A DNA stretch of 64,000 nt from Mariniphaga sp. (lineage in GTDB: Bacteria; Bacteroidota; Bacteroidia; Bacteroidales; Prolixibacteraceae): contig JBAXWR010000004.1 of the NCBI GenBank assembly GCA_037128295.1, positions 8,423 to 72,422 of the forward strand. The letters are read 5' to 3'. Numbering within the stretch: the first letter of the stretch is position 1; each line of letters begins with the position of its first letter. The notes below the pieces were generated by a model, which ran no database searches, was not told the origin of the DNA, and saw only the letters and a program-made list of their open reading frames with translations. This document shows, piece after piece, positions 18,550 through 34,305 of this stretch. Made by a program: the position numbers and the translations under genes.

Positions 18550-18569
18550 TTGATAATGTATTTCAGAGC

Positions 18570-20861
18570 ATGAAAATATTCGGGCGTTTCCTTTATTCAA
18601 TAGTCGTTCTGTCCTTTATTACCCTAACTTTTTCATGTCACAAGCCTTCAACACCATTTCGTCCAGATCCGAAAGCTATAGAAATGGATAGTTTGCTTCA
18701 AACCGCTTTGAGGAAAAGTTTAACTTCACCGGTAATCGCTGCAGGAATTGCAAACCAAGTAGAAGAGCTTGCAAATGAAGTTCATAACGACACAATGATT
18801 GTTAAATCCCAGCTTGTAATGGGCGCAATCTTGCGTCTTGAAGGCAGAAATGAGGAGGCTTTTTCATTGTTTCAAAGTTCACTCCAATTATCCGAAAAAA
18901 TTAAATACGAACATGGAATTTGCCAGTCATTGCTTGAAAGCGGTACTATTGTCTATATACAAGGCCAATATGAAAAATCGGGTGCTCTGTTTAGAAAGTC
19001 ATTGGACCTGGCACAAAAAGGGATGTTTTATGAACTGGAAGCCTCTTCATTGAATAACATTGGAAAATACTTGCACACCACGGGACGTTTCGATGAATCG
19101 GTCGATTATTATAAGCAGGCACTCGAAAAGTTTAAAATAAGTGGGGATTCACTCAATTCAGTCACTGTCTTATTGAACCTCGGGAAAACATATAACATCG
19201 ACAGTGATTTTTATATGGCGCTTAAATGTTATCTTGAAGCGTTTAAGATCTGTAAAAAGAGCGATGATTATTCAAATGTTTCAGAAGTATGCAGTAATTT
19301 AGGTTCATTCTATCTCACACTCGACCAACCCGAAATCTCCCTGGAATATCATAAAAGGGCACTTTTCTATCGGGTTCTACTCGATACACCCGAGGGACTG
19401 GCCAGTTCCTACAACAACGTCGGTAAAGTTTATCTTGTAAAAAACAATCCCGACAGTGCTTTTTTTTATTTTGGCAAATCGCTCAAGTACTGTGATCAGA
19501 TTTCCTATTTGAAAGGAAAAGTAAAGGCTTTGGCCAACATTGGCAAAGTCTGTAACCTTAAATCGGAACATAAAAAGGCAAAAACCTATCTCCAACAGTC
19601 CATGGCTATCGCTGAGAAAAGTGGCTATGTTGCGGGTGTCGCAGAAGCTTTGCTTCAACTGGGGAATACATTTCTTGGCCTGAACCAAATCGATTCTGCA
19701 AAAACAGCCTTCGAAAACTCCTTATTAAAGGCCAATTCAACGAATCTGACAGAAATAAATCATGATGCCTATTGGGGACTTTATCAGTGCTTTCTCAAAA
19801 AAAGAGATGCTGAAAAAGCTCTTGAATATTACAGGTACTTTTCACAGGCAGATAAAAAGAAGATGCAAGCTGAAAATAGTGCCAGGTTGTCGGAATTAAG
19901 AATAAACTTTGAATCTGAAAAGAAGGAAGATGATAATGTACTTCTCCGGAAAGAGAATGAAATTAAGGAAATTACAATCAGGCAGGAGCGTTTTATTATT
20001 TCATTGTTTTTTACTGCCTTGGTATTGACAATGTTGTTGATCATCATGCTTTATACCCGATTCGAAAATAAGCGGAAAGCCAACGAACACCTCTCAATAC
20101 TGAACAAAAAAATTGTAACCCAAAACATGGCACTTGAGAAACTGAACAAAGAACTCAAGAATGCCAATCGGGAAAAGGATAAAGTTTTTTCGATCATTAC
20201 CCATGAATTGAGAAATCCACTTTATTGGTTTCAGAACCTGACAGAAATGCTTTCATTGAAATACATGCAAATGCCACCTGAAAAGGTGCAAAAATCATTG
20301 GGAGCTTTGGACGAGTCAGCAAAAAATGCATTTCACCTGATGGACAACCTGTTGCACTGGTCGCGATCACGCCTCAACCGGATCACGCCTACTATTACTG
20401 ATCATTCGTTGGAAAAATTGATTCACGAATCATCCCGTATGTATGAGACTATTCTGAAACAAAAGAAAATTCAACTTATTATTGATCTGCCAAATGATTC
20501 CTTCATAAAGGTAGATACTGATTTATTTATGTGTGTTGTGCGCAACCTTGTGTCGAATGCAATCAAATACACACCCGAAAATGGAATCATCAAAATCATT
20601 GCAAGGCTTAAAAAGCAGAATTGCATCATCTCAGTAATCGATTCGGGAATTGGAATGGATCAGAAACTTAAGAAATCGATCTTTCACTCTGATAAGGAAT
20701 CAACCTCGGTTGGACTGATGAACGAGAAAGGATCTGGATTTGGTTTAAAATTATGCAAGGAATTTGTAAAGATGAATAAAGGTAAGATCTGGATCGCTGA
20801 CAATATTGAAAGTGGTACCTGCTTTTCCTTCACCGTGCCCTGTGTCATTACAATTAAGTAA
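18570..20861 (+). CDS. TPR-repeat sensor histidine kinase (extracytoplasmic TPR array, one TM, HisKA + HATPase_c)
   Basis: 763 aa. It has a signal/lipobox-like N-terminus, about 8 TPR-like repeats, a TM helix (FIISLFFTALVLTMLLIIMLY), an H-box (FSIITHELRNPL), and N/G boxes (LVSNAIKYT, GSGFGLKLC). Confidence 0.85.
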   Translation: MKIFGRFLYSIVVLSFITLTFSCHKPSTPFRPDPKAIEMDSLLQTALRKSLTSPVIAAGIANQVEELANEVHNDTMIVKSQLVMGAILRLEGRNEEAFSLFQSSLQLSEKIKYEHGICQSLLESGTIVYIQGQYEKSGALFRKSLDLAQKGMFYELEASSLNNIGKYLHTTGRFDESVDYYKQALEKFKISGDSLNSVTVLLNLGKTYNIDSDFYMALKCYLEAFKICKKSDDYSNVSEVCSNLGSFYLTLDQPEISLEYHKRALFYRVLLDTPEGLASSYNNVGKVYLVKNNPDSAFFYFGKSLKYCDQISYLKGKVKALANIGKVCNLKSEHKKAKTYLQQSMAIAEKSGYVAGVAEALLQLGNTFLGLNQIDSAKTAFENSLLKANSTNLTEINHDAYWGLYQCFLKKRDAEKALEYYRYFSQADKKKMQAENSARLSELRINFESEKKEDDNVLLRKENEIKEITIRQERFIISLFFTALVLTMLLIIMLYTRFENKRKANEHLSILNKKIVTQNMALEKLNKELKNANREKDKVFSIITHELRNPLYWFQNLTEMLSLKYMQMPPEKVQKSLGALDESAKNAFHLMDNLLHWSRSRLNRITPTITDHSLEKLIHESSRMYETILKQKKIQLIIDLPNDSFIKVDTDLFMCVVRNLVSNAIKYTPENGIIKIIARLKKQNCIISVIDSGIGMDQKLKKSIFHSDKESTSVGLMNEKGSGFGLKLCKEFVKMNKGKIWIADNIESGTCFSFTVPCVITIK

Positions 20862-20930
20862 AGAAATAATCTATGCGTCCTTATCAGTTATAAACCTTAA
20901 TAATTTAGAGGTCTGTTCAACAGATTCTTC

Positions 20931-20958
20931 TGTAATCGGTATGACTTAATTCTGTAAT
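20931..20958 (+). promoter_or_regulatory. TTCTGTAATCG direct repeat (TGTAAT at 20931 and 20953; 22-bp spacing)
   Basis: Two identical 11-mers counted directly, 72-99 bp upstream of the ATG at 21030. Confidence 0.4.
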
Positions 20959-21029
20959 CGTTTTGTCTTGTTTTGATAAAGTTATGTTAAACAAATGGTT
21001 ATGTAGAATTAACATGTACCCCACATTAT

Positions 21030-23651
21030 ATGGGTAGTTTCGTAGGTGATTTTGTAGTATCCCTGCTTTGCCTTTCCAAATTGGCGCTGTTCTTAATAAT
21101 TAGCGTTTTTAAATTTTTGTTATCTGAGTTAATTGAACATTACAATAATGGCACAATGAAAAATTGGAATAAAGAGATGAAATCAGAGTTCGGTACAATT
21201 CATCAAAATTCAGAAGAGTTGCTGACAAGAATCCATGGGAATTCAGGTTTTCCAAATTCTAACGATGAAGAACTGAATTACATTTGCCATCTGGAGCGCT
21301 CACAGGTAAGTCTGCAATTAAAGGTTGAAGAACTTATGCTCGCAAAGAAAGAGGCTGAAAAAAATGCGTCTGAAAAATATGCAGAATTGTTCCAATTGGC
21401 ACCAGTTGCGTATCTTACACTTTCAAGAGAGGGCAAAATCATTGAACTAAACACTTTCGCATCTCATTTGCTTGGAATTGAATGTACACCCCTAAGAGAT
21501 ATTCATTTTGAATCATTTGTTGATGATGATACCAAACCATTATTCAATCAATTCCTTCACAGAGTGTTAAACAACAATAGCATTGAAGTCTGCGAAGTTA
21601 CAATATTAAAAAAAGGGAGCCTACCACAGTTTATACGACTTACCGGAAAAGCTTCTGCAAATGCTGATCAATATTTATTGACTGCAATTAACATTGCCGA
21701 ACTTAAGCGGGCAGACGAGGCTCTGATTGAAGCAGACTGGAGGTTTTGTGCTTTGTTTGAGAACAGTCCAATTGCAGTTGCATACCATGAAATGATCTAT
21801 GATGAATACAGAAAACCAGTCGATTACCGGTTTCTTGATGCCAATAAAAGCTATCGGGAGCTAACAGGAACCGACCCCCGAGGCAAAACTGTAAAACAAG
21901 CATTTCCAGATATCGAAAACGGTGTTTTTGATTGGATCGGAACTTATGGCAAAGTGGTAAATACTGGGAAAACTATTCGCTTTGAACAATTTCTTCAATA
22001 TAATAATCGATGGTATGATTGTGTTGCTTACACTTACAAGCCAAACCATTTTGTAACTTCTTTCCTTGAAATAACAAAACGAAAAAGTGCCGAAGTAGCG
22101 CTTAAAGAGAGTGAATTAAAGTTCAGGACTGTTGCTGATCAAACGTCTGACTGGGTATATTGGATTGGTGAAGATCAACAAATTTTCTACATGTCCCCGG
22201 CCTGCAAAAAAATTACTGGTTATGATCCGGAAGAATTCCTATCAAAACCTCAGCTAATTAAGGAAATTGTCTATTCGGGTGATTACGATTCAATCCTCAA
22301 CTACAAAAATCAAATATTATTGAAGGAAAATAGGGATAAGGTTTATGATTTGGAAATAAGGGTGGTAAGTAAAGAGGGTGCTTTGGTTTGGATCCACCAT
22401 ATTTCCAGTCCTATATTTAATGAGAACGGGAAATACCTGGGAAGACGAATTAGCAACAGGGATATTACAGAAAAGAAAAAAATGATTACAGACTTGATTA
22501 AAGCGAAAGAACGGGCAGAAGAAAGTGATCGATTGATGTCATCGTTTTTGGCCAATATGAGCCATGAAATCAGAACTCCGATGACTGGCATACTAGGATT
22601 TACAGAATTATTAAAGGAACCCAACCTTTCGGTAAAGGAGCAGATGGAATTTATTCGTATTATTGAGATAAGTGGTACACGTATGCTCAATATTATTAAC
22701 GATATCATGAGCATATCAAAAGTTGAATCGGGACAAATGGAGGTATATCTATCAGAGACAAATATAAATACGCAAATTGATTACCTTTATACGTTCTTCA
22801 AACCCGAGGCAGAAAAAAAAGGTTTACAATTGTTTTTCAAAAAGACATTGTCCTCACAGGAAGCCATCCTAAAAACGGACAAGGAAAAAATCTATTCAAT
22901 TTTAACGAATCTTGTCAAGAATGCGATCAAATTTACACCTAGTGGTTCGATCGAATTTGGTTACGAAAAAAAAGATAAATACCTTGAATTTTTCATAAAG
23001 GATACTGGACCTGGAATTCGCGAGGAGCATAAGCATTTCATTTTTGAAAGGTTCAGGCAGGGAAGTGAATCGCTTAGTCGGAATTATGAAGGTGCAGGAC
23101 TTGGGTTGACAATATCCAAAGCATTTGTCGAAATGCTTGGCGGTAAAATATGGGTTGAAAGTACAGTGGGAAAAGGTTCGATATTTTATTTTACGATTCC
23201 CTATATTGCTCAAATTGAAGAAAAGAAACTCAGTAAAAGTTCTGTTAGCGCTGATAACTGCATTAAAAAACTAAAAATACTTATAGCAGAAGACAATCAA
23301 ATATCCTCGATACTTCTTGGAAAAGTTATGGGCAATTTCAGCAAAGAAGTTCTAAATGTGAACAATGGAATCGATGCAGTTGAGGTTTGTTTCAGCAATC
23401 CTGACATTGACCTTGTTTTGATGGATATTCAAATGCCCCTTATGGATGGTTATGAGGCAACCCGTTTAATCAGGAAATTCAATGCAGAAGTTGTAATTAT
23501 AGCACAATCCGCGTTTGCATTAACCGGCGACCAGGAGAGGGCAATTGCAGCCGGATGCAATAGCTACATTTCAAAACCAATTCAACAAAAGCATTTAACG
23601 GAGTTAATCAGTGCATATTTTAAACAACCCGTGCCCCTCATTCTGAACTAA
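21030..23651 (+). CDS. PAS-domain hybrid sensor histidine kinase with C-terminal receiver
   Basis: 873 aa. It has multiple PAS/PAC segments, an H-box (MSHEIRTPMTGILGF), an HATPase (GAGLGLTISKAFVEMLGGKIWVES), and a receiver (DLVLMDIQMPLMDG). An alternative start at 21156 is possible. Confidence 0.85.
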   Translation: MGSFVGDFVVSLLCLSKLALFLIISVFKFLLSELIEHYNNGTMKNWNKEMKSEFGTIHQNSEELLTRIHGNSGFPNSNDEELNYICHLERSQVSLQLKVEELMLAKKEAEKNASEKYAELFQLAPVAYLTLSREGKIIELNTFASHLLGIECTPLRDIHFESFVDDDTKPLFNQFLHRVLNNNSIEVCEVTILKKGSLPQFIRLTGKASANADQYLLTAINIAELKRADEALIEADWRFCALFENSPIAVAYHEMIYDEYRKPVDYRFLDANKSYRELTGTDPRGKTVKQAFPDIENGVFDWIGTYGKVVNTGKTIRFEQFLQYNNRWYDCVAYTYKPNHFVTSFLEITKRKSAEVALKESELKFRTVADQTSDWVYWIGEDQQIFYMSPACKKITGYDPEEFLSKPQLIKEIVYSGDYDSILNYKNQILLKENRDKVYDLEIRVVSKEGALVWIHHISSPIFNENGKYLGRRISNRDITEKKKMITDLIKAKERAEESDRLMSSFLANMSHEIRTPMTGILGFTELLKEPNLSVKEQMEFIRIIEISGTRMLNIINDIMSISKVESGQMEVYLSETNINTQIDYLYTFFKPEAEKKGLQLFFKKTLSSQEAILKTDKEKIYSILTNLVKNAIKFTPSGSIEFGYEKKDKYLEFFIKDTGPGIREEHKHFIFERFRQGSESLSRNYEGAGLGLTISKAFVEMLGGKIWVESTVGKGSIFYFTIPYIAQIEEKKLSKSSVSADNCIKKLKILIAEDNQISSILLGKVMGNFSKEVLNVNNGIDAVEVCFSNPDIDLVLMDIQMPLMDGYEATRLIRKFNAEVVIIAQSAFALTGDQERAIAAGCNSYISKPIQQKHLTELISAYFKQPVPLILN

Positions 23652-23816
23652 TTAATTATGATTTTATCATTTGAGAATTTTAGTTTTAACCTTCCATTTG
23701 TTTTAGCTTAGTTCCAGAAGTCTCCGTCTATTCCACCATTTCCCCCGAATCTCAATGCCCTTTTCCCATTTGGCCTAATCAGCTACAAATAGGATCAGAA
23801 CGGGGTATTAAATCAT

Positions 23817-23877
23817 TGTAACAAAATGGTAACCGATAATTGACCCCAGTGTAACAGGGGATCATCACTTTTGTAAC
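23817..23877 (+). promoter_or_regulatory. Four (T)GTAAC direct repeats with G at 23818, 23829, 23851 and 23873 (spacing 11, 22 and 22 bp)
   Basis: Positions counted directly. They lie 27-86 bp upstream of the first gene of the phosphonate cluster (ATG 23904). Confidence 0.5.
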
Positions 23878-23903
23878 GTTAAAAACATCTGAAACTTCAT
23901 AAT

Positions 23904-25064
23904 ATGAGAATTTTTGCATTAGGTGGAGCCGGCAAGATTTGTCGTGAGGCGGCACTTGATATTGTCCAATTTGGAATTTTCGATCAGTTGACAATTGGTG
24001 ATTTTGATGTAGATGCAGCCAAGGAAACAGCGAAATGGCTATTTCATCCCAAAGTCGATTATGTCTTTATTGATATAAGAAGCAAAAACGATTCAATTGC
24101 TCTTTTATCTGAATATGATATAGTTATCGATGGTACTACCATATCTCTCAATTCCCTTTCGACTGAATGTATTGCTCATGCAAATTGTCATGGAATCAAC
24201 CTGAACGGATTCGGTGAGGAATACCAATTCAGCGATATTTTCAAATCGAATGGGAAAATTATGGTCCCGGGATTTGGAATGACCCCAGGCATTACCAATA
24301 TGATGGCTGTCTTTGCCTGTGACCAAATGGAGAAAGTAAACATTGTTCGGGTCAGCCATGGTGCCTTTCGCCCGATTGCCTTTTCCGGTTCTATCACCGA
24401 GACGACCATTTATGAATATGACCCGAATTTGCCCGGTCGTACCGTATTCGAAAACGGGCAATTCTTTCAGGTTCCGCCGTTTGCGCGTCCACGGGTTGTT
24501 GAACTGCCGCAACCATATGGTAAAACCCTACAATATATTATACCTCATTCTGAAACATTCACATTGGCAAAATACCTTGAGAACAAAGGGGTTGAATTGA
24601 TTGAGGTTCGTGGAACATGGCCTGTTGAGAATATGTTGCTGATAAAAGCACTGTATAATTATGGGTTTTTGAACAACCCACAAATAACTCTTGATGGCCA
24701 TGAGTTCGGAATTATGGATGCCATCAGCGAATACCTTCAAAAATCGGATAAAGGTAAATCAACAGAATTATTTGGTTATTCACTTCATGTTGAAGTGGAG
24801 GGTATTAAAAAAGGAAAGTTGGTACGACTAACATTGACACATACACACCCATCTTCTGATGGTTCAAATCCAAAATGGAAAGGTTTAAGGGCTTATACCA
24901 GAAATGTAGGAATCCCCATGAGCATTGCGGCTCAATTGATTGCGCAAGGAAAATACAAAGGAGAAGGCGCATTGTATCCTGAGTTTGTTTTCAACCCCGT
25001 AACCGTTTTTGAAGAATTGGCCAAAAGACAAATTTATATTCATGTTGAAGAAGAAATAATCTGA
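23904..25064 (+). CDS. Saccharopine dehydrogenase-like NAD(P)-dependent oxidoreductase (function in this context unknown)
   Basis: 386 aa. It has an N-terminal Rossmann loop (IFALGGAGKICREAA) and a central PGFGMTPGITN motif typical of the Sacchrp_dh family. It is the first gene of the phnX-phnW cluster, 5 nt before phnX. Confidence 0.7.
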   Translation: MRIFALGGAGKICREAALDIVQFGIFDQLTIGDFDVDAAKETAKWLFHPKVDYVFIDIRSKNDSIALLSEYDIVIDGTTISLNSLSTECIAHANCHGINLNGFGEEYQFSDIFKSNGKIMVPGFGMTPGITNMMAVFACDQMEKVNIVRVSHGAFRPIAFSGSITETTIYEYDPNLPGRTVFENGQFFQVPPFARPRVVELPQPYGKTLQYIIPHSETFTLAKYLENKGVELIEVRGTWPVENMLLIKALYNYGFLNNPQITLDGHEFGIMDAISEYLQKSDKGKSTELFGYSLHVEVEGIKKGKLVRLTLTHTHPSSDGSNPKWKGLRAYTRNVGIPMSIAAQLIAQGKYKGEGALYPEFVFNPVTVFEELAKRQIYIHVEEEII

Positions 25065-25069
25065 ATATC

Positions 25070-25864
25070 ATGCAGAAATTGAATAACATAAAAGCAGTCA
25101 TCTTTGACTGGGCCGGAACAATAATCGACTATGGATGTATGGCGCCTACCCAGGTATTCGTTCAGGTTTATAAATCAAAAGGAGTTTTTCTAAGTAATGA
25201 AGAGGCTCGGGGACCAATGGGATTGGCAAAGAAGGATCATATTCGGGAATTGATGCAGTTGGGCTCCATTCAAAAACAATGGATGATTAGATTCAGGCGA
25301 TACCCAACTGAAGCCGACATCGAATCAATATACGCTGAACTGGAGCCTGTTCTTTCAAATATCGTTAAAAACTATACCGCTCCGATCCAGGGTGCTATTG
25401 AACTCATCAACTTGCTTAAATCTCAGGGAATAAAAGTAGGTACTACGACAGGATATGTTGCTGAAATGATGGACAATATATTACCGATTACCACAGCATT
25501 GGGCTTGTTGCCAGACGCCGTTGTGAATTCATCAGAAGTCTCATCAGGAAGGCCTTATCCCTGGATGATCTACCGTAACTGCGAAAAGATGAATGTTTTC
25601 CCATTGAGTAAAATGGTTAAAATCGGTGATACAGTTGCCGATATCCAGGAAGGTGTAAATGCGGGGATGTGGACAATTGGGTTAACAAAATCGGGAAACG
25701 AACTTGGATTATCAATTGCTGAAACTCAAAAGGCAGATCCTGTTTGGCTTCAGGAAAAAATCGCTATTGCCGAACAGAAGTTGCTGGATGCAGGTGCTGA
25801 TTATGTGGCCGATGGGGTTTGGGATTGCTTACCTATCCTTTATGAAATTGACAATCTGATCTAA
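25070..25864 (+). CDS. phnX: Phosphonoacetaldehyde hydrolase (phosphonatase)
   Basis: 264 aa. It has the HAD motif I with the PhnX-specific context (AVIFDWAGTIIDYGCMAP), then GTTTGY, GRPYPWM and KIGDTVADIQEG, closely paralleling characterised Bacillus PhnX. Confidence 0.92.
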   Translation: MQKLNNIKAVIFDWAGTIIDYGCMAPTQVFVQVYKSKGVFLSNEEARGPMGLAKKDHIRELMQLGSIQKQWMIRFRRYPTEADIESIYAELEPVLSNIVKNYTAPIQGAIELINLLKSQGIKVGTTTGYVAEMMDNILPITTALGLLPDAVVNSSEVSSGRPYPWMIYRNCEKMNVFPLSKMVKIGDTVADIQEGVNAGMWTIGLTKSGNELGLSIAETQKADPVWLQEKIAIAEQKLLDAGADYVADGVWDCLPILYEIDNLI

Positions 25865-25892
25865 ATCAGGAATTCTAAATAATACTTTAAGA

Positions 25893-27227
25893 ATGACAAA
25901 AGCAATTTCTCCTGCCATGAGAAAATGGCGTATTCAAATATTTGCAGTCACATGGCTGGCATATTTCGGGATGTATTTTTGCCGCAAGAATTTCAGCGTT
26001 GTTATGCCCGTGATGAGTCGGGAGTTAGGTACCTCAAAGGAGGAATTTGCGTTTGTAATAACCATTTACAGTATCATGTATATGTTGGGTCAGTTTCTGA
26101 GTGGCTATCTGAGCGACCGGAACGGTCCACGGCTTATTGTTGGGATTGGCCTATTGATTGCAGTCATTTCAAATCTCCTGATGGGCTGGATGGGAACTAT
26201 GGGTTCTTTCGTTTTTTTAATGGGATTGAATGGATTTGGACAATCTACGGGTTGGTCAGGACTTGTCAAAAACCTGACACCCTGGTTCAAAAAGAAGGAA
26301 CGCGGCGTGATGATGTCATTCTGGTCAACCTGTTATGTAATTGGAGGAGTAGCCGCAACTGCATTTGCTACTTATTGGCTCACCAATCAGCAATTCCTTT
26401 CAGAATATTCGTGGAAAAGGGCATTCCTTGCTCCGGCAGTTCTTTTATTGGTTATTTCAATCTTTTACATCGTGTTTGACCGGAATAATCCAACGGATGT
26501 AGGATTGGAGACATTTGAAAAAAACGGGATCACAAAAAAAGGTAAGAGAAAGGATAAAGAGGCTCAGATGGCTGTATTAAAAAATGGCGCTGTCTGGATT
26601 GCTGCAGCCATGTACTTCTTTTTAAAATTTACCCGTTATGCATTTCTTTTCTGGCTCCCCCTGTACCTTTCGGAGGCACTTTTCTATTCCGACCAGCAGG
26701 CAGGATATACCTCAATGGCTTATGAAGCATTCGGGTTTCTGGGAGTCCTGGCGGCAGGTTTTGCTTCCGATTATTTATTTAAAGCACGCCGGTTTCCCAT
26801 CAGTTCGATAATGCTTTTTGGATTGGCCATCGTTTTGTTTTTGCAGCCTTATCTAAGTCCATTGGGAAATGTTCCCACTATTATTTCGATCGGGCTTATT
26901 GGGTTTTTCACTTATGGTCCAGACTCGCTAATGTCGGGTGCTGCTGCGATGGATATGGGAAAAAACCATGGTGCAGCTTTGTCTGCAGGTTTGATCAATG
27001 GTGTAGGTTCTGCAGGTCAATTGTTGTCGCCCTTTGCCGTTGCATATGTTTCCCAAAAATATGGATGGAACGCATTGTTTGAGGTATTCGTCATAGTAGC
27101 CTTAATTGCAGCTTTCCTGTTAATCTTTAAATGGAATTATGGAACTGAAAATCAATCTGATGAATCACCAGAATTATCCTCACACCCTGATGAGGAATAT
27201 GTAGAACTGGGTCTGACAACCAAGTAA
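25893..27227 (+). CDS. MFS transporter of the organophosphate:Pi antiporter (GlpT/UhpC) type; candidate 2-AEP permease
   Basis: 444 aa with 12 predicted TM helices and the OPA-type motif (GYLSDRNGPRLIV). It is embedded between phnX and phnW. Confidence 0.75.
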   Translation: MTKAISPAMRKWRIQIFAVTWLAYFGMYFCRKNFSVVMPVMSRELGTSKEEFAFVITIYSIMYMLGQFLSGYLSDRNGPRLIVGIGLLIAVISNLLMGWMGTMGSFVFLMGLNGFGQSTGWSGLVKNLTPWFKKKERGVMMSFWSTCYVIGGVAATAFATYWLTNQQFLSEYSWKRAFLAPAVLLLVISIFYIVFDRNNPTDVGLETFEKNGITKKGKRKDKEAQMAVLKNGAVWIAAAMYFFLKFTRYAFLFWLPLYLSEALFYSDQQAGYTSMAYEAFGFLGVLAAGFASDYLFKARRFPISSIMLFGLAIVLFLQPYLSPLGNVPTIISIGLIGFFTYGPDSLMSGAAAMDMGKNHGAALSAGLINGVGSAGQLLSPFAVAYVSQKYGWNALFEVFVIVALIAAFLLIFKWNYGTENQSDESPELSSHPDEEYVELGLTTK

Positions 27228-27252
27228 TAAATAAAATAAAATTTCATAGAAT

Positions 27253-28356
27253 ATGGACAATAAACTGTTTACTCCAGGCCCTTTAAATACAAAACGATCG
27301 GTGAAGAAAGCCATGCTTCACGATATGGGGTCGCGAGACAAAGAATTTTTGGAGGTTGTAGAAAAAATCCGCTGTGAACTGCTCGAAATTGCAGGTGTGA
27401 GCCGTGATGAGGGGTACGATTCGGTTTTGATGCAAGGATCCGGAACATTTGGAGTGGAATCTGTCATTTCAACAGTTATTCCAGAATATGGCCATTTACT
27501 GTTGATTTCAAATGGTGCATACGGTGACCGGATCGGAAATATGACCCATGTTTACGAGATCAAAACGACAACACTAAATTATAAGGAAAATGTAGTACCA
27601 TCTTATCTCGATGTGGAAGATGCGCTGAAAAAAGATGATTCAATTACCCATGTGGCTTTGGTACATTGTGAAACCACCACTGGCATTTTCAACGACATCG
27701 AAAATGTAGGATATATAGCTCGAAAATACAATAAACAGTTTATTGTTGATGCAATGAGCAGTTTTGGAGCAGTTCCCATTGATTTAAAGGGAATTGGCAT
27801 TGATTTTTTAATATCTTCATCCAATAAATGTATTGAAGGAGTACCTGGGTTTTCTTTTGTCATCTTTAAAACCAGCTCACTTATTAGTTGTAAGGGCAGT
27901 GCCAGAACCGTCTCGCTTGATCTTTACAATCAATGGATGTATATGAAGAATAGTAATCAATTCCGGTTTACTCCCCCAATTCAGTCCATTCTGGCATTCA
28001 ATCAGGCCCTAGAGGAGCTAAAACTTGAAGGTGGTGTCCGGAAACGATCGGAACGCTATCAACAGAATTACAACAGTTTAATCGAAGGAACCGAAGCACT
28101 TGGCTTAACAACTTATCTTGCTAAAAAGGATCAGGGATACATCATCACCTCTTTTCTGTTTCCAAAACACCCGAATTTCGATTTTACCTTATTTTACGAA
28201 AAATTACACGGACGGGGACAAGTCATCTATCAGGGAAAATTGTCGGATACAGATTGCTTCCGCATCGGCAATATTGGCCAGCTTTATCTGGAAGATATTG
28301 ATAGACTGATTGATGCAATACAAGAAGTGCTACTTGAAATGGGGGTCCCGGTATAA
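27253..28356 (+). CDS. phnW: 2-aminoethylphosphonate--pyruvate transaminase
   Basis: 367 aa class-V aminotransferase fold (LFTPGPLNT, SSNKCIEGVPG with the PLP lysine). Clustering with phnX agrees. Confidence 0.88.
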   Translation: MDNKLFTPGPLNTKRSVKKAMLHDMGSRDKEFLEVVEKIRCELLEIAGVSRDEGYDSVLMQGSGTFGVESVISTVIPEYGHLLLISNGAYGDRIGNMTHVYEIKTTTLNYKENVVPSYLDVEDALKKDDSITHVALVHCETTTGIFNDIENVGYIARKYNKQFIVDAMSSFGAVPIDLKGIGIDFLISSSNKCIEGVPGFSFVIFKTSSLISCKGSARTVSLDLYNQWMYMKNSNQFRFTPPIQSILAFNQALEELKLEGGVRKRSERYQQNYNSLIEGTEALGLTTYLAKKDQGYIITSFLFPKHPNFDFTLFYEKLHGRGQVIYQGKLSDTDCFRIGNIGQLYLEDIDRLIDAIQEVLLEMGVPV

Positions 28357-28378
28357 ACCAAATAATAATTCATCAAAC

Positions 28379-28406
28379 TGTAACCTCAGGTTCACAGAAT
28401 TGTAAT
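28379..28406 (+). promoter_or_regulatory. TGTAAC / TTCAC / TGTAAT repeats (28380, 28391, 28402; spacing 11 and 11 bp)
   Basis: Positions counted directly. They lie 58-85 bp upstream of the ATG at 28464. A -7-like GACATTTG follows at 28417-28424. Confidence 0.4.
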
Positions 28407-28463
28407 AACATTCCTTGACATTTGCCAACTGAAAATATAACATACTTGATTAATTAGTAAAAA

Positions 28464-28973
28464 ATGAAAATCAAAGTTTTAATAATAATATTGTATTTGG
28501 TAGGTGGTAAAAGTTTCGCCCAGAATCTGAATAATGTCCAGTATCCTCATATGCAGAAACCATCGGCACATAAGGAAATCAAGCTACCCAATATATTGGG
28601 ATATACCACATTGAAGTGCGATTTTCACATGCACCAATTGCTACTTGAAAAAGGGCTGATCAATGGGGTTGAAGTTTTCAATGAACAGGAGTACTATCCC
28701 ATTGTTCTCGATTGGTGCCTCAATCGAAATATGGCCGTGATCAGCAATTCTGATATTCACGATGTCACAGCTAATAGGAAGAACAAAGCGTTGTATGAGA
28801 TCAGCAATGTTTCAGCCATTCCATTTGATGTAGAAACCTCAAAAGGGGACAAATTATTTATTCCAGCAGATTCCTCAATAATCATGCCTCTTGACTCGTT
28901 CAACTATAAAGGACTGAAAATCAGGAATCTTTTTACGGGTTCAAAATCAAATCTAAAAGTGAACTTACTTTGA
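28464..28973 (+). CDS. PHP-domain phosphoesterase-like protein, apparently internally deleted (possible pseudogene)
   Basis: 169 aa. It has a signal peptide, then LKCDFHMH (PHP metal motif 1) joined directly to a late-domain segment (GLINGVEVFNEQEYYP...NSDIHD). Full-length PHP esterases of this type are roughly twice as long. Confidence 0.4.
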   Translation: MKIKVLIIILYLVGGKSFAQNLNNVQYPHMQKPSAHKEIKLPNILGYTTLKCDFHMHQLLLEKGLINGVEVFNEQEYYPIVLDWCLNRNMAVISNSDIHDVTANRKNKALYEISNVSAIPFDVETSKGDKLFIPADSSIIMPLDSFNYKGLKIRNLFTGSKSNLKVNLL

Positions 28974-28986
28974 TAAATAATTTGTA

Positions 28987-30354
28987 ATGTCAATAAATCC
29001 AGACATATTGGTCACCGAAGGTGATGTAAATTTCTCCGATGAGAGAAGGAGATGGGATCAAGATATAACAGATCCTTTGACCAGAAAGATCCTGGACGAT
29101 GATGCCCGATATTTTCTGCACCAATCGTTGTCGACCCCTTGCCTTGATGTTCTTGAAAAATGCAAAGGAAGTGGGATGATAACGTTATCCGGAAGATATT
29201 TACTTGATTTTCACGGAAATAATGTTCATCAACTGGGTTTTGGGAATGACTTTGTAATTGACCGAATTAAGGAACAAATGGAATCGCTCCCCTTCTCGCC
29301 CCGAAGGTACACCAATCAACCGGCAGTCGAGCTTGCAGAAAAACTGGCAAGTCTGTTGCCTGGTGACCTGAACCGGTGTTTGTTTGCCCCCGGTGGCACC
29401 TCCGCAGTTGGGATGGCTTTGAAGCTGGCGAGGTTGGTTTCTGGGAAATATAAGGTAATATCTCTTTACGATTCTTTTCATGGTGCCTCGCTTGATGCCA
29501 TTTCAGTAGGTGGTGAAGCTGCATTTCGGCAGTATATGGGTCCATTAATGCCTGGTGTTGTCTCCATTCCGCCCCCAACAACCTATCGGGGAATTTTTGG
29601 CCACAGCGAAGCCGATCAGATCAAATATGCCGATTATCTTGAATATGTCATTGAAAAAGAAGGAGATATTGGTGCTTTTATTGCCGAAACGGTGCGGAAC
29701 ACAGATGTACAGATCCCATCAAAAGCTTATTGGCAAAGGGTTAGGGAAATTTGCACCAAACATGGGGTCATACTTATCCTCGATGAAATCCCGATTGCCC
29801 TTGGACGAACCGGCAAAATGTTCGCATTCGAAAACTTCGGTATCGAACCTGACATCCTTTGCCTTGGGAAAGGCCTGGGTGGAGGAATAATACCTTTTGC
29901 AGCAATTGTTACAAGGGACAGCTACAACGTTGCACAGGATGTCTCACTTGGACATTACACACATGAGAAGAATCCACTTGGAAGCGTTGCAGGTCTGGCT
30001 ACAATAACTTATATAGAAGATCACAAATTACTTGAAAAAGTGGCTGAAAATGGATCGTATATGCTTGACAGATTGTATCGGTTAAAAAAACAGTTCCCAT
30101 TAATTGGCGATATACGTGGTTTGGGTTTTCTTTGGGGAATAGAACTGGTTAAAGATCAGTTAACCAAAGAGAAGGCCACAGAAGAAGCAGAAAAGGTTAT
30201 GTACAATTGTATGCGCAATGGGTTAAGCTTTAAGGTTTCGCAGGGAAATGTCCTTCAGCTTTCGCCGGCCCTGACCATTAGCCGCGATGAATTGCAAACA
30301 GCCTTATCCATACTGATGGTCGTATTTGACAAATTGTCCGAACATCAAATTTGA
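28987..30354 (+). CDS. Class-III (fold type I) PLP enzyme; PbfA-like candidate (R)-1-hydroxy-2-aminoethylphosphonate ammonia-lyase, or an aminotransferase
   Basis: 455 aa with class-III aminotransferase motifs (GGTSAVGMALKLAR, LDEIPIALGRTGKMFAFE, CLGKGLGGG). The assignment to PbfA rests on genomic context only. Confidence 0.55.
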   Translation: MSINPDILVTEGDVNFSDERRRWDQDITDPLTRKILDDDARYFLHQSLSTPCLDVLEKCKGSGMITLSGRYLLDFHGNNVHQLGFGNDFVIDRIKEQMESLPFSPRRYTNQPAVELAEKLASLLPGDLNRCLFAPGGTSAVGMALKLARLVSGKYKVISLYDSFHGASLDAISVGGEAAFRQYMGPLMPGVVSIPPPTTYRGIFGHSEADQIKYADYLEYVIEKEGDIGAFIAETVRNTDVQIPSKAYWQRVREICTKHGVILILDEIPIALGRTGKMFAFENFGIEPDILCLGKGLGGGIIPFAAIVTRDSYNVAQDVSLGHYTHEKNPLGSVAGLATITYIEDHKLLEKVAENGSYMLDRLYRLKKQFPLIGDIRGLGFLWGIELVKDQLTKEKATEEAEKVMYNCMRNGLSFKVSQGNVLQLSPALTISRDELQTALSILMVVFDKLSEHQI

Positions 30355-30423
30355 ATCCCTATGTATAATACTAATATAAATACCTAATAATTAATTACAT
30401 ACAAATCATTAAATTCCAATCAC

Positions 30424-30963
30424 ATGTTAATAAACACACATATTATAATTCTGATATTCCTTCTGTTTTCTGGAAGGACTTTTTCGCAGGATGCTTTGGC
30501 AATGTCAGATTCTGGAGATGCCAAAAGCAATGGTTCTTTAACTTCGGGTTTGCCAGTTTTTGAATTCAGGGTATATGCCAATAACAATGATCTCGATGCC
30601 ATCACCAAAGACATGGCAGGTGAGCATATATTGGGTGAGTTGGCTTCCAGAAAATTGTACTTGCTTGAATCAAAATACACGTTCGAAGTGCCGACCGTAC
30701 CGGGCAACCCTCAAACAAGAACAATGGTGCGAAAACCCGTCATTTACGATGCAGTGAAAAAAGTTGAACGTTACTTCAAAAAATCTGTCAAAAAAGGAGA
30801 GGTTCCACTTGAGGCAGCGTCAGAAGAATTCAACAAAGTTTTGGATGTTGCAATCAATGTACTTACCGCCGATACCAGGAACTTCGAAAAAACGATCAGC
30901 AAAACTGAAGATATGGTATCCTTAATCAACCTGTTGACAAAAAGAGTAAACCTCGTGTTATAG
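30424..30963 (+). CDS. Secreted hypothetical protein
   Basis: 179 aa with a signal peptide (ILIFLLFSGRTFSQ). I recognise no motif. Confidence 0.5.
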   Translation: MLINTHIIILIFLLFSGRTFSQDALAMSDSGDAKSNGSLTSGLPVFEFRVYANNNDLDAITKDMAGEHILGELASRKLYLLESKYTFEVPTVPGNPQTRTMVRKPVIYDAVKKVERYFKKSVKKGEVPLEAASEEFNKVLDVAINVLTADTRNFEKTISKTEDMVSLINLLTKRVNLVL

Positions 30964-31006
30964 TCCATAAGAATCAAAAATTAAATTATTGATTTATTGA
31001 TATTTA

Positions 31007-31022
31007 CAGTATAATTATACTG
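31007..31022. promoter_or_regulatory. Perfect 16-bp palindrome CAGTATAATTATACTG upstream of susC-like gene
   Basis: Verified self-complementary by hand. It lies 59 bp upstream of the ATG at 31081 and is preceded by a TTATTGA direct repeat. Confidence 0.35.
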
Positions 31023-31080
31023 CAATATGCCTAAGTTGTGTCAAAAAAAACAAGTATGTATAATTTCTAATTCTTTTAAA

Positions 31081-34000
31081 ATGCAAAGAACTATTATTTT
31101 ATCAATTCTGGTTATGCTGTTTGGAACTTCACTTTATGCCCAAAAAGCAAAAATTGAAGGAACAGTTAAAATCGGCAATGGGGAAACGTTGCCGGGTGCA
31201 ACCGTTCTCCTGAAAGGCACCACAACCGGTGCAATGACCACTGGAGATGGGAAATTCACCCTTATGGCCGAACCCAAGGACATCATTGTCGTTTCTTACA
31301 TTGGATTTGAATCCAAAGAGGTTGCGGTTGGCAATCAAAAAGTTATTGTTATTACCCTTGAGGAGGCAAAAGAGCAGATAAAGGAAGTAATTGTTACGGC
31401 TTTAGGTATCGAAAAACAAAAAAGCACAATTGGATTTGCCGTTCAGGGTGTGAAAGGTAGTGAGATGGTCAAAGCCAGGGAACCCAATGCTATCAATTCC
31501 CTGACAGGGAAAGTGGCAGGATTAACGGTTGGCGCATCCTCCGAAATACTTGGGTCCCCAACTGTTCTGCTTCGCGGATATGCCCCGCTTTATGTTGTTG
31601 ATGGTGTTCCGGTGCAAACCGATACCTGGAATATCAATCCGGACGATATCGAAAGCTACACCATTCTGAAAGGGCCGAGCGCGGCAGCCTTATACGGTTC
31701 AAGAGGACAATATGGTGCTATCCAGATTACTACCAAACGGGGTACTGGCGACAAACGCGGATTTGTGGTTGATTTTAATTCAAGCACCATGGTCGAAAGT
31801 GGTTTTCTGGCTATTCCTAAAGTTCAGGATGAATATGGCCCAGGCGACCATGGAATATACGCATTTGCTGATGGGAAAGGGGGCGGTTTAAACGATGGTG
31901 ATTATGATGTTTGGGGGCCAAAGTTTGATGGGCAATTGATCCCGCAATATGATGGCCTATACACACCAGGAACTTCTTATACCACAACTTTCGCAAATGG
32001 TTCGACCTATAAAGGAAATATTAAACCAACACCCTATATTGCACGGGGTAAAGACAACCTGAAACGTTTTCTTGAGCCAGGCCTTTTATCCAACAACAGC
32101 GTTTCCCTATCGGCAAGTGGCGACAAATACGATCTCCGGTTTTCTGCTTCGCATAGCTACCAGAATGGTATCGTGCCAAATACTTCGCTCAATATCACCA
32201 ACTTTAACCTAACTGGAGGTTACAACATTTCGAAGAAGCTTCGTGTTAGTGCAAATATGGCTTTTAGCCGTCAATACACTCCCAATGTTCCGGACGTCAC
32301 CTATGGACCAAACAGTATTATATACAACATTATAGCCTGGGGTGGGGCTGATTGGAATATTGCCGATATGCGTAACTACTGGCAACCCGGGAAAGAGGGT
32401 GTTCAATCAATCTATGCTGAATATCAACGTTACCACAATCCCTATTTTATGTCATATGAATGGCTGCGGGGTCACTATAAAAGCGACCTAACAGGGAATG
32501 CTGCCATATCGTACAAAGTCAACAATTACCTGAGTTTGCAGGCCCGTACCGCCATTTCAACCTACGACTTGTTCCTGTCTGAAAAACTTCCTTTCTCTGC
32601 CCACCCTTATGGGCGTGAAGCAGGTGAAGGCGATTACCGGGAAGACAAGCGCAACTTATTCGAGAACAATACCGATATTCTTTTATCATACGACCGTTAT
32701 GTCACTCCCAAGATTAGTTTACACGCAACTGCCGGGGGAAATATCCGTTCATATAATTTCAGGAGCAGCTACTCATCGACTGACTATTTGAACGTTCCCG
32801 GATGGTATAACCTGAGCAACTCTAAAAATCCGGTAAAATCGTACAATTACAATGCCCCAATGCAGGTATTAAGCGCCTATGCAACCGCCGACCTTACTTA
32901 CAATGATTTCCTGACATTGTCGTTAACAGGCCGTGCCGATGAAAACTCAACATTGCCTGTTGGCAACAATACTTATTTTTATCCTTCAGTTTCTACAAGT
33001 ATCGAGCTTTCGAAATTAGTGACCATCCCTCACGTTAAAACATGGAAAGTTAGGGGTTCGTATGCCAATGTTGGAAGTGCGCTCACTTCCTCAACAATCG
33101 GATCAACCGACGAAGTTCTCGGATCTACGGTTGTAGGGTATGGAAGCAGTTACAGATCGCCCTATGATGGACCAACCTATAAAAATTCATCTTCTTATGG
33201 CATTAACCTGATCCAGGGAAAACCAGCCGCTACCTATACCAATGCCATTTCAAATCCAAACCTGAAACCAAGTTCAAGTTCGGCATGGGAAGTCGGAACG
33301 GATGTTGGTCTGTTTGAAAATAGGCTCATGTTCGACGCAACTTATTTTTCGAGCATCGATGGCCCACAAATCTTCTCGTTGCCAATTTCGGGGGCGACCG
33401 GATATTCATCGGCACTCGTGAATGGGATCAAAGTTCAGCGGAAAGGGATCGAAATTAGTGTTGCAGGCTCGCCAATACGCAATGCCAAAGGCTTTAGCTG
33501 GGACATTTCGGCAAACTATTCGACCAATCAACAATACCTGAAAGAAATTTATCCTGGCGTTGAAAAACTCAATATCTATTTGAAAGTTGGTGACCGCATG
33601 GATAAAATGTACGGTACGGACTTTGTCAGGACTTCTGACGGGACAATTATAAACGATGCCAGCGGCCGACCAATCAAAAACTCGGTTTCTCAATTCCTTG
33701 GAAATGCAAATTCAAATTGGGTCGGAGCCATTAACAACACGTTGTCGTACAAAAATTTCAGTTTGAAATTTCAGTTTGATGGTCGTTTTGGCGGTTCCAT
33801 TATTGACTATGTTGAAAAGAAAACCTACCAGGGAGGACGACACATCAACACCGTACTTGGTGATATGGGAGCTGCCAGGTTAAACGACACCAAAGGCATT
33901 AAATCGTATGTTGGTCAAGGGGTAGTTGTTAGCAATGGACAGGCAATCGAATACGATTCTGACGGAAATGTGACAAACTACAGCAAACTTCAGTTTGCTC

Positions 34001-34305
34001 CAAATACAACTGTGACTTATCTACAGGATTATATCAGCCGTTACTATGGGACCGATGTGGCAGACCGTATCAGCCGTACTTTTGTCAAATTACGCGAAGT
34101 CGTTCTGACCTACAACTTTCCTCAGGCATTCCTCAGCAAGACTCTAATCAAACAAGCAAGTATCTCTTTCGTTGGCCGTAACCTCTTGTATTTTGCTGAA
34201 AGAAGCGATATCGATATCGAACAATATGCAAATACGAGTGGATCCTCCGGGCTTCAAACGCCAACAACGCGCCGCTATGGGTTTAACCTGAATATCAGCT
34301 TCTAA
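31081..34305 (+). CDS. SusC/RagA-family TonB-linked outer membrane transporter
   Basis: The ATG at 31081 gives a signal peptide (MQRTIILSILVMLFGTSLYAQ). It has a CarbopepD_reg domain (IEGTVKIGNGETLPGATVLLKG), a plug, and a 22-strand-type barrel ending YGFNLNISF. A SusD-like gene follows. Confidence 0.9.
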   Translation: MQRTIILSILVMLFGTSLYAQKAKIEGTVKIGNGETLPGATVLLKGTTTGAMTTGDGKFTLMAEPKDIIVVSYIGFESKEVAVGNQKVIVITLEEAKEQIKEVIVTALGIEKQKSTIGFAVQGVKGSEMVKAREPNAINSLTGKVAGLTVGASSEILGSPTVLLRGYAPLYVVDGVPVQTDTWNINPDDIESYTILKGPSAAALYGSRGQYGAIQITTKRGTGDKRGFVVDFNSSTMVESGFLAIPKVQDEYGPGDHGIYAFADGKGGGLNDGDYDVWGPKFDGQLIPQYDGLYTPGTSYTTTFANGSTYKGNIKPTPYIARGKDNLKRFLEPGLLSNNSVSLSASGDKYDLRFSASHSYQNGIVPNTSLNITNFNLTGGYNISKKLRVSANMAFSRQYTPNVPDVTYGPNSIIYNIIAWGGADWNIADMRNYWQPGKEGVQSIYAEYQRYHNPYFMSYEWLRGHYKSDLTGNAAISYKVNNYLSLQARTAISTYDLFLSEKLPFSAHPYGREAGEGDYREDKRNLFENNTDILLSYDRYVTPKISLHATAGGNIRSYNFRSSYSSTDYLNVPGWYNLSNSKNPVKSYNYNAPMQVLSAYATADLTYNDFLTLSLTGRADENSTLPVGNNTYFYPSVSTSIELSKLVTIPHVKTWKVRGSYANVGSALTSSTIGSTDEVLGSTVVGYGSSYRSPYDGPTYKNSSSYGINLIQGKPAATYTNAISNPNLKPSSSSAWEVGTDVGLFENRLMFDATYFSSIDGPQIFSLPISGATGYSSALVNGIKVQRKGIEISVAGSPIRNAKGFSWDISANYSTNQQYLKEIYPGVEKLNIYLKVGDRMDKMYGTDFVRTSDGTIINDASGRPIKNSVSQFLGNANSNWVGAINNTLSYKNFSLKFQFDGRFGGSIIDYVEKKTYQGGRHINTVLGDMGAARLNDTKGIKSYVGQGVVVSNGQAIEYDSDGNVTNYSKLQFAPNTTVTYLQDYISRYYGTDVADRISRTFVKLREVVLTYNFPQAFLSKTLIKQASISFVGRNLLYFAERSDIDIEQYANTSGSSGLQTPTTRRYGFNLNISF

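Follow-up and report, generated by a model that had tools for sequence, protein, structure and literature searches.

Background

Among natural phosphonates, 2-aminoethylphosphonate (AEP) and its derivatives are the most abundant, and in oceans, soils, and guts they are a significant source of phosphorus and nitrogen. Here, we describe a phosphonate gene cluster in a 64,000-nucleotide stretch of a Mariniphaga sp. genome (GenBank assembly GCA_037128295.1, contig JBAXWR010000004.1), referred to below as the window, with emphasis on its first gene, which encodes an oxidoreductase of the saccharopine dehydrogenase fold (SDH) and stands directly before the gene for phosphonoacetaldehyde hydrolase, PhnX. 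The PhnWX pathway of AEP breakdown was first described in Bacillus cereus (PMC10574752), and PbfA has since been recognized as a recurrent lyase for (R)-1-hydroxy-AEP (HAEP) in AEP clusters, so that several aminophosphonates converge on phosphonoacetaldehyde (PAA) (Zangelmi et al. 2021, PMC8154272). Further accessory enzymes are the FAD-dependent N-methyl-AEP oxidases and dehydrogenases PbfB, PbfC, and PbfD (Zangelmi et al. 2023, PMC10590968), the NAD-dependent HAEP racemase PbfF (Ruffolo et al. 2025, PMC12366243), and the HEP dehydrogenases PbfG and PhpC (Piazza et al. 2026, PMC13576164). PbfA, PbfB, PbfC, PbfD, PbfF, and PbfG were each found by spotting a gene that recurred in such clusters and then testing it. 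The label PbfE was not found in the phosphonate literature that we searched, where PbfA to PbfD, PbfF, and PbfG were, and this name may be reserved for unpublished work, conceivably on the SDH family.

Uptake systems have been described as well. AepP, a GlpT-like permease, is needed by P. putida BIRD-1 for growth on AEP as the sole nitrogen source, adjoins phnWX or phnWAY in several phyla, Bacteroidetes among them, and is characterized by retention of the phosphate-binding residues of GlpT together with loss of the glycerol-contacting ones (Murphy et al. 2021, PMC8316502). PusCD proteins belong to the phosphate utilization systems of Bacteroidetes, which are defined by SusC/SusD proteins encoded together with phosphoesterases, enzymes of phosphonate degradation, and a transporter for organophosphorus compounds in the inner membrane (Lidbury et al. 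2020, PMC8115612).

The window locus has all three enzymes of the PhnWX and PbfA pathway, but the clusters described so far come mostly from Gamma- and Alphaproteobacteria and have ABC importers, whereas this one is from the Bacteroidia and has an importer of the major facilitator superfamily (MFS), a SusCD module, and an extra dehydrogenase. A preliminary description, made from the sequence of the window, had regarded four of the accessory features as unusual. This holds for the saccharopine dehydrogenase family gene and does not hold for the permease or PbfA, which are published, recurrent parts of such clusters; the PhnWX, PbfA, AepP-like, and PusCD-type parts of the locus are essentially of a known type, and SDH alone is really unassigned. 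Our literature search found no paper tying the saccharopine dehydrogenase family to AEP, phnX, or phosphonoacetaldehyde, in line with the remark in that description that this enzyme has no known role in phosphonate breakdown.

The SDH family and its genomic neighborhood

The SDH gene (positions 23904–25064, + strand) encodes 386 amino acids that match the Pfam families PF03435 (Sacchrp_dh_NADP, 31 bits) and PF16653 (Sacchrp_dh_C, 53 bits). No NCBIfam equivalog model fitted it, the best being that for carboxynorspermidine synthase (NF043000), with 22 bits against a cut-off of 800. Its close homologues form a tight family, 78–94% identical within the Bacteroidia and at least 59% identical across phyla. 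Identities of 59–67% were found to proteins from Bacillus, Brevibacillus, Paenibacillus, Anaerovoracaceae, Syntrophaceae, Desulfovibrio, Verrucomicrobiales, Terracidiphilus, Spirochaetales, and Gemmatimonadota, and the mean column identity of a 17-sequence cross-phylum alignment was 73%. Among 1.84 billion representatives of 50%-identity clusters, the family is one cluster with a single full-length representative (578 bits); the full-length proteins that come next reach about 300 bits at most, at 23–34% identity. Longer homologues (P0087, P0018, and P0064) were considered as gene fusions that might give a clue to function and were rejected, being merely N-terminal gene-call extensions.

The neighbors of SDH were scored in 80 genomic loci (these and further related loci are given below by L numbers) using tblastn and clustering of open reading frames (ORFs), with a true phn gene defined as PhnX at 38% identity or more, PhnW at 40% or more, or PbfA at 44% or more, within 10 kb of SDH. 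Such a gene was present in 51 of the 80 loci, and on the same strand PhnW was directly adjacent to SDH in 29 loci and PhnX in 13. In the 53 loci that extend 8 kb or more to each side of SDH (full-flank loci), PhnW was present in 38, PhnX in 36, and PbfA in 7, PbfA being near SDH in 16 of the 80 loci overall. PhnW was found in every one of the 38 phn-positive full-flank loci. The preliminary description had allowed that the adjacency of dehydrogenase and phnX could be unique to this genome, in which case SDH would be a chance neighbor; instead, it recurs in at least six phyla, with examples in Bacteroidota, Bacillota, Desulfobacterota-type lineages, Verrucomicrobiota, Acidobacteriota, and Spirochaetota. 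None of the four outgroup contexts examined had phn genes nearby; in two of them, the neighbors were Octopine_DH, alanine racemase, alanine dehydrogenase, creatinase-like, and glycine-reductase genes. The phn association is specific to the tight family. Chance proximity was ruled out by the 80-locus survey and these outgroup controls; back-of-envelope reasoning, not a computation, puts the chance of a phnX gene within 10 kb of an arbitrary gene below 0.1%.

The commonest arrangement, found in the B. cereus group, Brevibacillus, and Paenibacillus, is an operon of seven genes in the order PhnS2-like binding protein, ATPase, permease, PhnX, PhnW, SDH, and DeoR regulator. This canonical Bacillota operon, the one arrangement among the 80 loci that was checked in this respect, has no slot for a PF01266 gene, the family of PbfB, PbfC, and PbfD.

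The absence of any true phn gene within 10 kb of SDH in 15 of the 53 full-flank loci speaks for a reading in which SDH has no phosphonate role and is either a polyamine or lysine enzyme hitch-hiking with mobile phn clusters or a downstream housekeeping enzyme for alanine, ammonium, or acetaldehyde. Some of the phn-negative loci have only a DeoR regulator, which alone adjoins SDH in several Clostridia, or distant PhnX- or PhnW-like genes (~33% identity), and Pfam and NCBIfam place SDH no closer than the general superfamily. Many phn-negative loci (L013, L014, L028, L065, L068, and L076) nevertheless carry a PhnS2-like AEP binding protein and an ABC transporter beside SDH, and the same-strand adjacency to PhnW or PhnX is kept in no fewer than six phyla, with the genes in several orders, and also beside a PhnX–PhnW fusion. 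The extreme purifying selection seen in the cross-phylum identities, the lack of phn association in the outgroup, and the very low score with the carboxynorspermidine synthase model also argue against such a bystander, which we regard as improbable. A functional tie of SDH to AEP catabolism is, by contrast, very likely.

Several variants of the neighborhood were observed. In some Brevibacillus (L041, L070, and L075), PhnX and PhnW are fused in a 648-residue protein (cluster c65) that is followed directly by SDH and DeoR. An SDH–PhnX pair in Neobacillus, Peribacillus, Pseudobacillus, and Scopulibacillus (L030, L042, L049, L053, L063, and L074; ~11.3–16.5 kb) is followed directly by genes with Pfam matches to a BMC-H shell protein, aldehyde dehydrogenase, a second BMC-H, PduL-type phosphotransacylase, an unknown protein of 261–279 residues, and EutN; PhnW and an ABC or MFS importer lie upstream in most of these loci, and PhnW lies downstream in L030. 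This arrangement looks like a phosphonatase-centered acetaldehyde microcompartment; judging by their titles and abstracts, the four papers found to name microcompartments together with phosphonoacetaldehyde do not seem to describe one. In three other loci (L004, L005, and L006; ~5.4–9.0 kb), a second module upstream of SDH consists of a PhnX-like HAD protein (250 residues), a DUF5690 membrane protein, which may be another aminophosphonate transporter, and PbfA; it is parted from SDH by a divergent protein of ~300 residues and unknown family (c28) that also precedes SDH in L007 and L009. Gut Clostridia such as Hominibacterium faecale (L010, L022, and L024) have DeoR divergent from SDH, then a histidine kinase, an OPA-type MFS protein, a hydantoinase/oxoprolinase-like protein, a HAD protein, a PhnX-like gene (33% identity), a second MFS protein, and a PhnW-like gene (32–34%), which looks like a divergent phosphonate-like pathway. 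In the nearest outgroup of the family (L090, L091, and L092), SDH-fold genes, at times two per locus, are grouped with genes of the Octopine_DH family and with those for alanine racemase, an MR_MLE enzyme, alanine dehydrogenase, a creatinase-like peptidase, and subunits of glycine reductase. These loci look like an uncharacterized pathway by which anaerobes would process opines or other secondary amines.

Fold and proposed cofactor and reaction of SDH

An AlphaFold2 model of SDH (pLDDT 88, pTM 0.88) was compared with solved structures by Foldseek and matched carboxyspermidine dehydrogenase (8deb; TM score 0.85, 17–20% identity), the L-lysine dehydrogenase of P. horikoshii (3abi; TM 0.73–0.81, 18% identity), and saccharopine reductase/AASS (1ff9 and 5l78; TM ~0.76, 14% identity). 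These solved relatives are NAD(P)-dependent and reduce imines or oxidize amines at a CH2–N bond. SDH has the two-domain fold, the Rossmann glycines, and an H215/E217 motif in common with this group of carboxy(nor)spermidine dehydrogenases, saccharopine reductase, and L-lysine 6-dehydrogenase, but it differs in its low overall identity to them (14–20%), in its phosphonate rather than polyamine or lysine context, in an Asp that replaces the residues binding the NADP phosphate, and in many invariant Arg and His residues of its own. By sequence, PDB matches were at E values of 1e-13 or weaker; carboxyspermidine dehydrogenase was found at ~1e-13, and the solved lysine dehydrogenase was not detected.

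The outgroup also has H215 and E217, which correspond in the alignment to the H-E-E motif of carboxyspermidine dehydrogenase. Strand beta-2 of the family ends in an invariant Asp, D33, at the place where carboxyspermidine dehydrogenase has the Ser-Arg-Thr that binds the NADP phosphate, and this difference suggests that SDH uses NAD+ and works in the catabolic direction. Seven further residues, R14, H96, H152, R195, H295, H313, and R329, are invariant only within the SDH family and would suit an anionic phosphonate ligand.

The reaction that we favor is an NAD+-dependent oxidation of the C2–N bond in an AEP-type amine to an imine, which would be hydrolyzed to PAA for PhnX. In this reaction, N-substituted or free AEP, NAD+, and water would give PAA, an amine or ammonium, and NADH, with PhnX pulling the equilibrium. 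It is favored because PAA resembles aspartate semialdehyde, both having an aldehyde, a CH2, and an anionic group, and aspartate semialdehyde is the aldehyde substrate of carboxyspermidine dehydrogenase. That SDH forms PAA by C–N oxidation is, in our judgment, an evenly balanced proposition. The most probable substrate would be an N-substituted AEP, for example N-methyl-AEP, which would make SDH an oxygen-independent counterpart of the FAD enzymes PbfB, PbfC, and PbfD, and the more specific assignment of N-alkyl-AEP as its substrate is tentative and rather doubtful.

Like PbfB, PbfC, and PbfD, SDH would be an ancillary redox enzyme of AEP clusters that oxidizes a C–N bond to give PAA. Those enzymes are PF01266 flavoproteins using O2 or a quinone as acceptor, whereas SDH is a PF03435/PF16653 Rossmann protein with NAD+ as its proposed acceptor and a proposed activity, and its distribution is centered on Bacillota, anaerobic lineages, and Bacteroidia. 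A counterpart of this kind would fit the skew to Bacillota and anaerobes, as well as the missing PF01266 slot in the Bacillota operon. PbfF and PbfG/PhpC are also NAD-linked accessory enzymes found through their recurrence in AEP or PAA clusters, but they belong to other families (PF02826 for PbfF; PF00107 and Fe-ADH for PbfG/PhpC), and PbfG/PhpC act on an alcohol.

The relation to the L-lysine dehydrogenase structure is also what would be expected if SDH were a deaminating AEP dehydrogenase, converting AEP, NAD+, and water to PAA, ammonium, and NADH as a pyruvate-independent bypass of PhnW that releases the nitrogen directly. AEP, like the lysine side chain, has a primary amine on a CH2, many members of the family are labeled lysine 6-dehydrogenase by JGI, SDH lies directly upstream of PhnX in Bacteroidota and in Neobacillus-type loci, and D33 points to the required NAD+. 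Such an enzyme would, however, duplicate PhnW in all 38 phn-positive full-flank loci, and no case was found of SDH with PhnX in the absence of PhnW, whereas clusters that pair the PbfD oxidase with PhnX do dispense with PhnW (PMC10590968; PMC13576164). By sequence, SDH is also closer to the secondary-amine enzyme carboxyspermidine dehydrogenase than to lysine dehydrogenase. Direct deamination of AEP is, on this evidence, a minority possibility, if the foremost of the alternatives.

The strict co-occurrence of SDH and PhnW can also be accounted for if SDH releases AEP, rather than PAA, from an N-conjugate such as an opine-like N-(carboxyalkyl)-AEP by oxidizing the bond on the other side of the nitrogen, with PhnW taking the product. 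N-(carboxyalkyl) secondary amines are the established chemistry of the fold family, being acted on by saccharopine reductase and carboxyspermidine dehydrogenase, and the nearest outgroup relatives cluster with Octopine_DH-family genes and amino-acid enzymes. On the other hand, we know of no natural AEP conjugate of the N-(carboxyalkyl) type, and in Bacteroidota and in microcompartment-type loci SDH is paired tightly with PhnX and not with PhnW. Release of AEP from a conjugate is therefore an unlikely function.

For the formation of PAA by SDH, our preferred reading, several points weigh on the other side. SDH never visibly replaces PhnW, because no full-flank locus pairs SDH and PhnX without PhnW, and this co-occurrence would be expected just as well if the product of SDH still had to pass through PhnW, as AEP freed from a conjugate would. 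The preference for NAD+ is suggested by one residue, D33, and the Arg and His residues that would suit a phosphonate are identified by their invariance in an alignment rather than by their position in the pocket. For the family as a whole, cofactor, reaction, and substrate are what we infer from sequence, fold, and gene context.

PhnX, PhnW, and PbfA

Gene identities were assigned from Pfam and NCBIfam profile scans using the curated equivalog cut-offs, and the profile scores lie well outside the range of chance. The span 23904–30354 given in the preliminary description contains six ORFs, all on the + strand and at the positions listed there, and every gene identification made in it was borne out; its end at 30354 was too early, as the genes for a 179-residue protein (hyp179), SusC, and SusD continue the locus to 35833. 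PhnX (25070–25864, + strand) scored 317 bits with TIGR01422 (cut-off 220), and its translation carries the FDWAGT sequence of the HAD nucleophile motif (DxxGT) and the lysine of PMGLAKK, which we take to correspond to Asp12 and the Schiff-base lysine Lys53 of the B. cereus enzyme. PhnW, the AEP:pyruvate transaminase (27253–28356, + strand), scored 475 bits with NF010006 (cut-off 296) and 453 bits with TIGR02326 (cut-off 401), so both enzymes are as confidently recognizable as had been claimed.

The class-III aminotransferase-fold gene (28987–30354, + strand; Pfam Aminotran_3), which had been compared to PbfA by its position, scored 720.7 bits with the PbfA equivalog NF049939 (cut-off 525), and the next non-PbfA models scored 283 bits or less. 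Its best PDB match, a generic class-III enzyme, reached only ~220 bits. Membership in PbfA is settled as far as sequence can settle it, and the (R)-1-hydroxy-AEP ammonia-lyase function is predicted. Because of this equivalog membership, the locus is expected to feed HAEP as well as AEP into PAA, which sustains the earlier suggestion that the pathway funnels more than AEP into PAA as regards HAEP; a further substrate entering through the dehydrogenase stays at the level of inference.

The presence of PbfA in the window raises the possibility that SDH is a non-homologous analogue of PbfF, that is, an NAD-dependent racemase turning (S)-1-hydroxy-AEP into the (R) form for PbfA. PbfA adjoins SDH in several Syntrophales-type loci (7 loci within 400 bp), and NAD-dependent redox isomerization does occur in this pathway, as PbfF shows. 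PbfF clusters, however, always contain pbfA, which has a background rate below 25% (PMC12366243), whereas PbfA accompanied SDH at about this background rate in the survey (7 of 53 full-flank loci, 16 of all 80), and the Bacillus, Brevibacillus, and Paenibacillus operons are without it. Characterized members of the SDH fold act on C–N bonds rather than secondary alcohols. A PbfF analogue was rejected given the lack of dependence on PbfA and the PF03435 and PF16653 domains, as opposed to the D-2-hydroxyacid dehydrogenase fold (PF02826) of PbfF, and is the least probable of the alternatives considered.

Putative inner- and outer-membrane transporters

The MFS permease (25893–27227, + strand) matched OPA-family models but fell below the cut-offs of the TIGR00881, GlpT, UhpC, UhpT, and PgtP models of NCBIfam. 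In an alignment to GlpT (1pw4), R45, K46, R269, Y38, Y42, and Y76 are retained, with K80 replaced by Q and H165 by Y (residues numbered as in GlpT). This is the residue pattern of AepP, and the gene is co-localized with phnWX in the same manner; the identification of a GlpT/UhpC-like MFS was correct, as was the statement in the preliminary description that a GlpT-like AEP permease named AepP had been reported (PMC8316502). Both proteins are OPA-family MFS permeases that keep the phosphate-binding Arg of GlpT, have K80 and H165 replaced, and are encoded beside phnWX, although the comparison with AepP of P. putida BIRD-1 is one of residue pattern and context, not of direct sequence. Close homologues (53–89% identity) are common in Bacteroidota, and in L081, L084, and L088 they are encoded in phosphonate loci. 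From family and context, the window permease is a putative AepP-like inner-membrane importer for AEP or HAEP. It is ~28% identical to GlpT and equally ~28% identical to the acidobacterial and verrucomicrobial phn-linked MFS proteins, which tells against this assignment.

The same permease clade was observed in a phosphorus-scavenging locus of a complete 4.95-Mb Bacteroidota genome (L084), which begins with GDPD, a purple-acid-phosphatase-like Metallophos protein, a second Metallophos protein, a PhnY-like aldehyde dehydrogenase, and a PhnA-like Phosphodiest protein and continues with an HTH-cupin regulator, PhnW, the MFS permease, a 280-residue PHP protein, a Laminin_G protein, SusC, SusD, and fasciclin. 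Because of this gene order, the MFS–PHP–SusCD module can be said to combine with the PhnWAY route also.

Beyond PbfA, the window encodes hyp179 (30424–30963, + strand), with a signal-like N-terminus, a SusC-like TonB-dependent outer-membrane transporter of the PusC type (31027–34305, + strand; Pfam CarbopepD_reg_2, Plug, and TonB_dep_Rec_b-barrel), and a SusD-like surface lipoprotein of the PusD type (34343–35833, + strand; Pfam SusD-like_2, 230 bits). All three recur beside phn genes in L001–L006, L009, L081, and L088. The SusC cluster (c20) is conserved beside phn genes, the SusD cluster (c27) is conserved in L001–L003, L005, and L006, and the combination of SusCD, esterases, and phn genes recurs in L001–L006, L009, L081, L084, and L088. 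The hyp179 protein had no Pfam or NCBIfam match, but 119 homologues were found, few with a taxon name and all of these from Bacteroidota, and in phn loci its gene always stands before that for SusC, even in L088, where SDH is absent. Its AlphaFold2 model (pLDDT 79) is mostly helical, and a Foldseek search of the PDB gave no match below E = 0.79.

By Pfam matches and synteny, the locus has the co-localization that defines PusCD, in that a SusC/SusD pair stands with phosphonate enzymes and an inner-membrane organophosphorus transporter, and it is a phosphorus-utilization locus of the PusCD type of Bacteroidota. It differs from the described systems in the conserved partner hyp179 and in the loss of both esterases of its relatives. 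The part of SusCD in phosphonate uptake is read from synteny, which counts against treating it as settled.

Lost esterases and surroundings of the locus

The nearest relatives are metagenome-assembled genomes (MAGs) of Prolixibacteraceae. A syntenic metagenomic contig (L081), 81–85% identical to the window at the nucleotide level, has the gene order Metallophos, SDH, PhnX, MFS, PhnW, PHP (362 residues), PbfA, hyp179, and SusC. The corresponding PHP-family ORF of the window (28464–28973, + strand; 169 residues) had no Pfam or NCBIfam match, but it aligned in frame by tblastn and blastn to residues 1–60, 184–232, and 297–362 of the 362-residue protein (L081 7071–8159). Deletions of 128 and 65 codons, both in frame and each bordered by a few bases of microhomology, removed the DH and NHPG motifs and left the HMH and SDIHD motifs of the metal-binding site. 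As two of four metal-binding motifs are gone, this ORF is a relic of a secreted phosphoesterase and makes no contribution to the pathway in the window; the truncation noted in the preliminary description is real, but a role for this gene is not. An intact homologue of 364 residues with a signal peptide is present between SusD and PhnX in a Marinifilaceae MAG (L009).

The Metallophos gene of L081 is likewise missing from the window, where a conserved leader (23754–23900) directly abuts the SDH gene; in L081 this leader (1131–1274) stands before the Metallophos gene. The window genome has lost both of the head-group-releasing esterases of its relatives, PHP and Metallophos, and the strain therefore probably depends on aminophosphonates that are already free, or on other esterases. 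A Metallophos gene at 11149–12138 is one candidate substitute. The non-coding leader as a whole (23754–23903, + strand), which aligns at 77% to L081 1131–1274, probably holds a promoter or operator region. Scans for sigma-70 promoters and terminators over 23500–37000 gave results no better than shuffled sequences, Bacteroidota promoters being outside the models of the scanner. Four GTAAC motifs were observed at ~23815–23880 within the 150-bp leader (TGTAACAAAATGGTAACC, GTGTAACAGG, and TTGTAACGTT) and may be an operator.

Upstream of the leader, the ~12.8-kb block 10951–23754, between a GH1 gene (9528–10940) and the phn leader, is either an insertion relative to L081 or a deletion in L081. It contains the Metallophos gene mentioned above, a Big_2 protein, a TonB-dependent receptor (13831–16551), a beta-propeller protein, and regulators comprising a LuxR-type response regulator (17896–18549), a TPR histidine kinase, and a PAS hybrid histidine kinase. 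Directly 3′ of SusD, two tandem and slightly overlapping DUF1508 (YegP-like) ORFs of 124 and 132 residues (35895–36633) were observed, with none seen in the related loci examined. Just beyond the locus, on the − strand, 36715–38655 holds a PiT/PHO4 phosphate transporter (37621–38655) and a 281-residue ORF without a Pfam match. In Syntrophales-type genomes (L033, L065, and L077), the SDH/phn loci likewise have PiT at their flank, together with a 222-residue helical protein of PhoU/DUF47-like appearance, and this arrangement may be linked to the handling of phosphate freed from phosphonates.

Proposed pathway and its significance

In the proposed pathway, SusC and SusD, probably with hyp179, would carry phosphonate-bearing material over the outer membrane, and in the relatives of this strain secreted PHP and Metallophos esterases would free AEP-type head groups. 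GlpT is an antiporter, and the MFS permease would import AEP or HAEP, possibly in exchange for the phosphate freed by PhnX. From their equivalog models, PhnW is predicted to convert AEP and pyruvate to PAA and alanine, PbfA to convert HAEP to PAA and ammonia, and PhnX to cleave PAA to acetaldehyde and phosphate; SDH would supply additional PAA. It is highly likely that this is a locus of the phosphate utilization type for the catabolism of AEP and HAEP. The full model, with PAA formation by SDH included, has in our estimate an even chance of being right. The broader proposal that the SDH family is a new phosphonate breakdown factor, an NAD+-dependent and oxygen-independent amine dehydrogenase that makes PAA from N-substituted or free AEP, falls somewhat short of that and is put forward provisionally.

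The SDH family is nonetheless a well-supported and testable candidate for a missing enzyme of aminophosphonate breakdown. It satisfies the recurrence by which the Pbf enzymes were found more strongly than most of them, with at least 59% identity in at least six phyla and adjacency to PhnW or PhnX in dozens of genomes, and it has gone unnoticed although it is part of the phnXW operon of the well-studied B. cereus. If the family does oxidize aminophosphonates with NAD+, this would be a new reaction for the saccharopine-reductase superfamily and an oxygen-independent entry to phosphonate mineralization, relevant to anaerobic sediments and gut communities, and it would open to anaerobes and Bacillota the aminophosphonates for which Proteobacteria use FAD oxidases.

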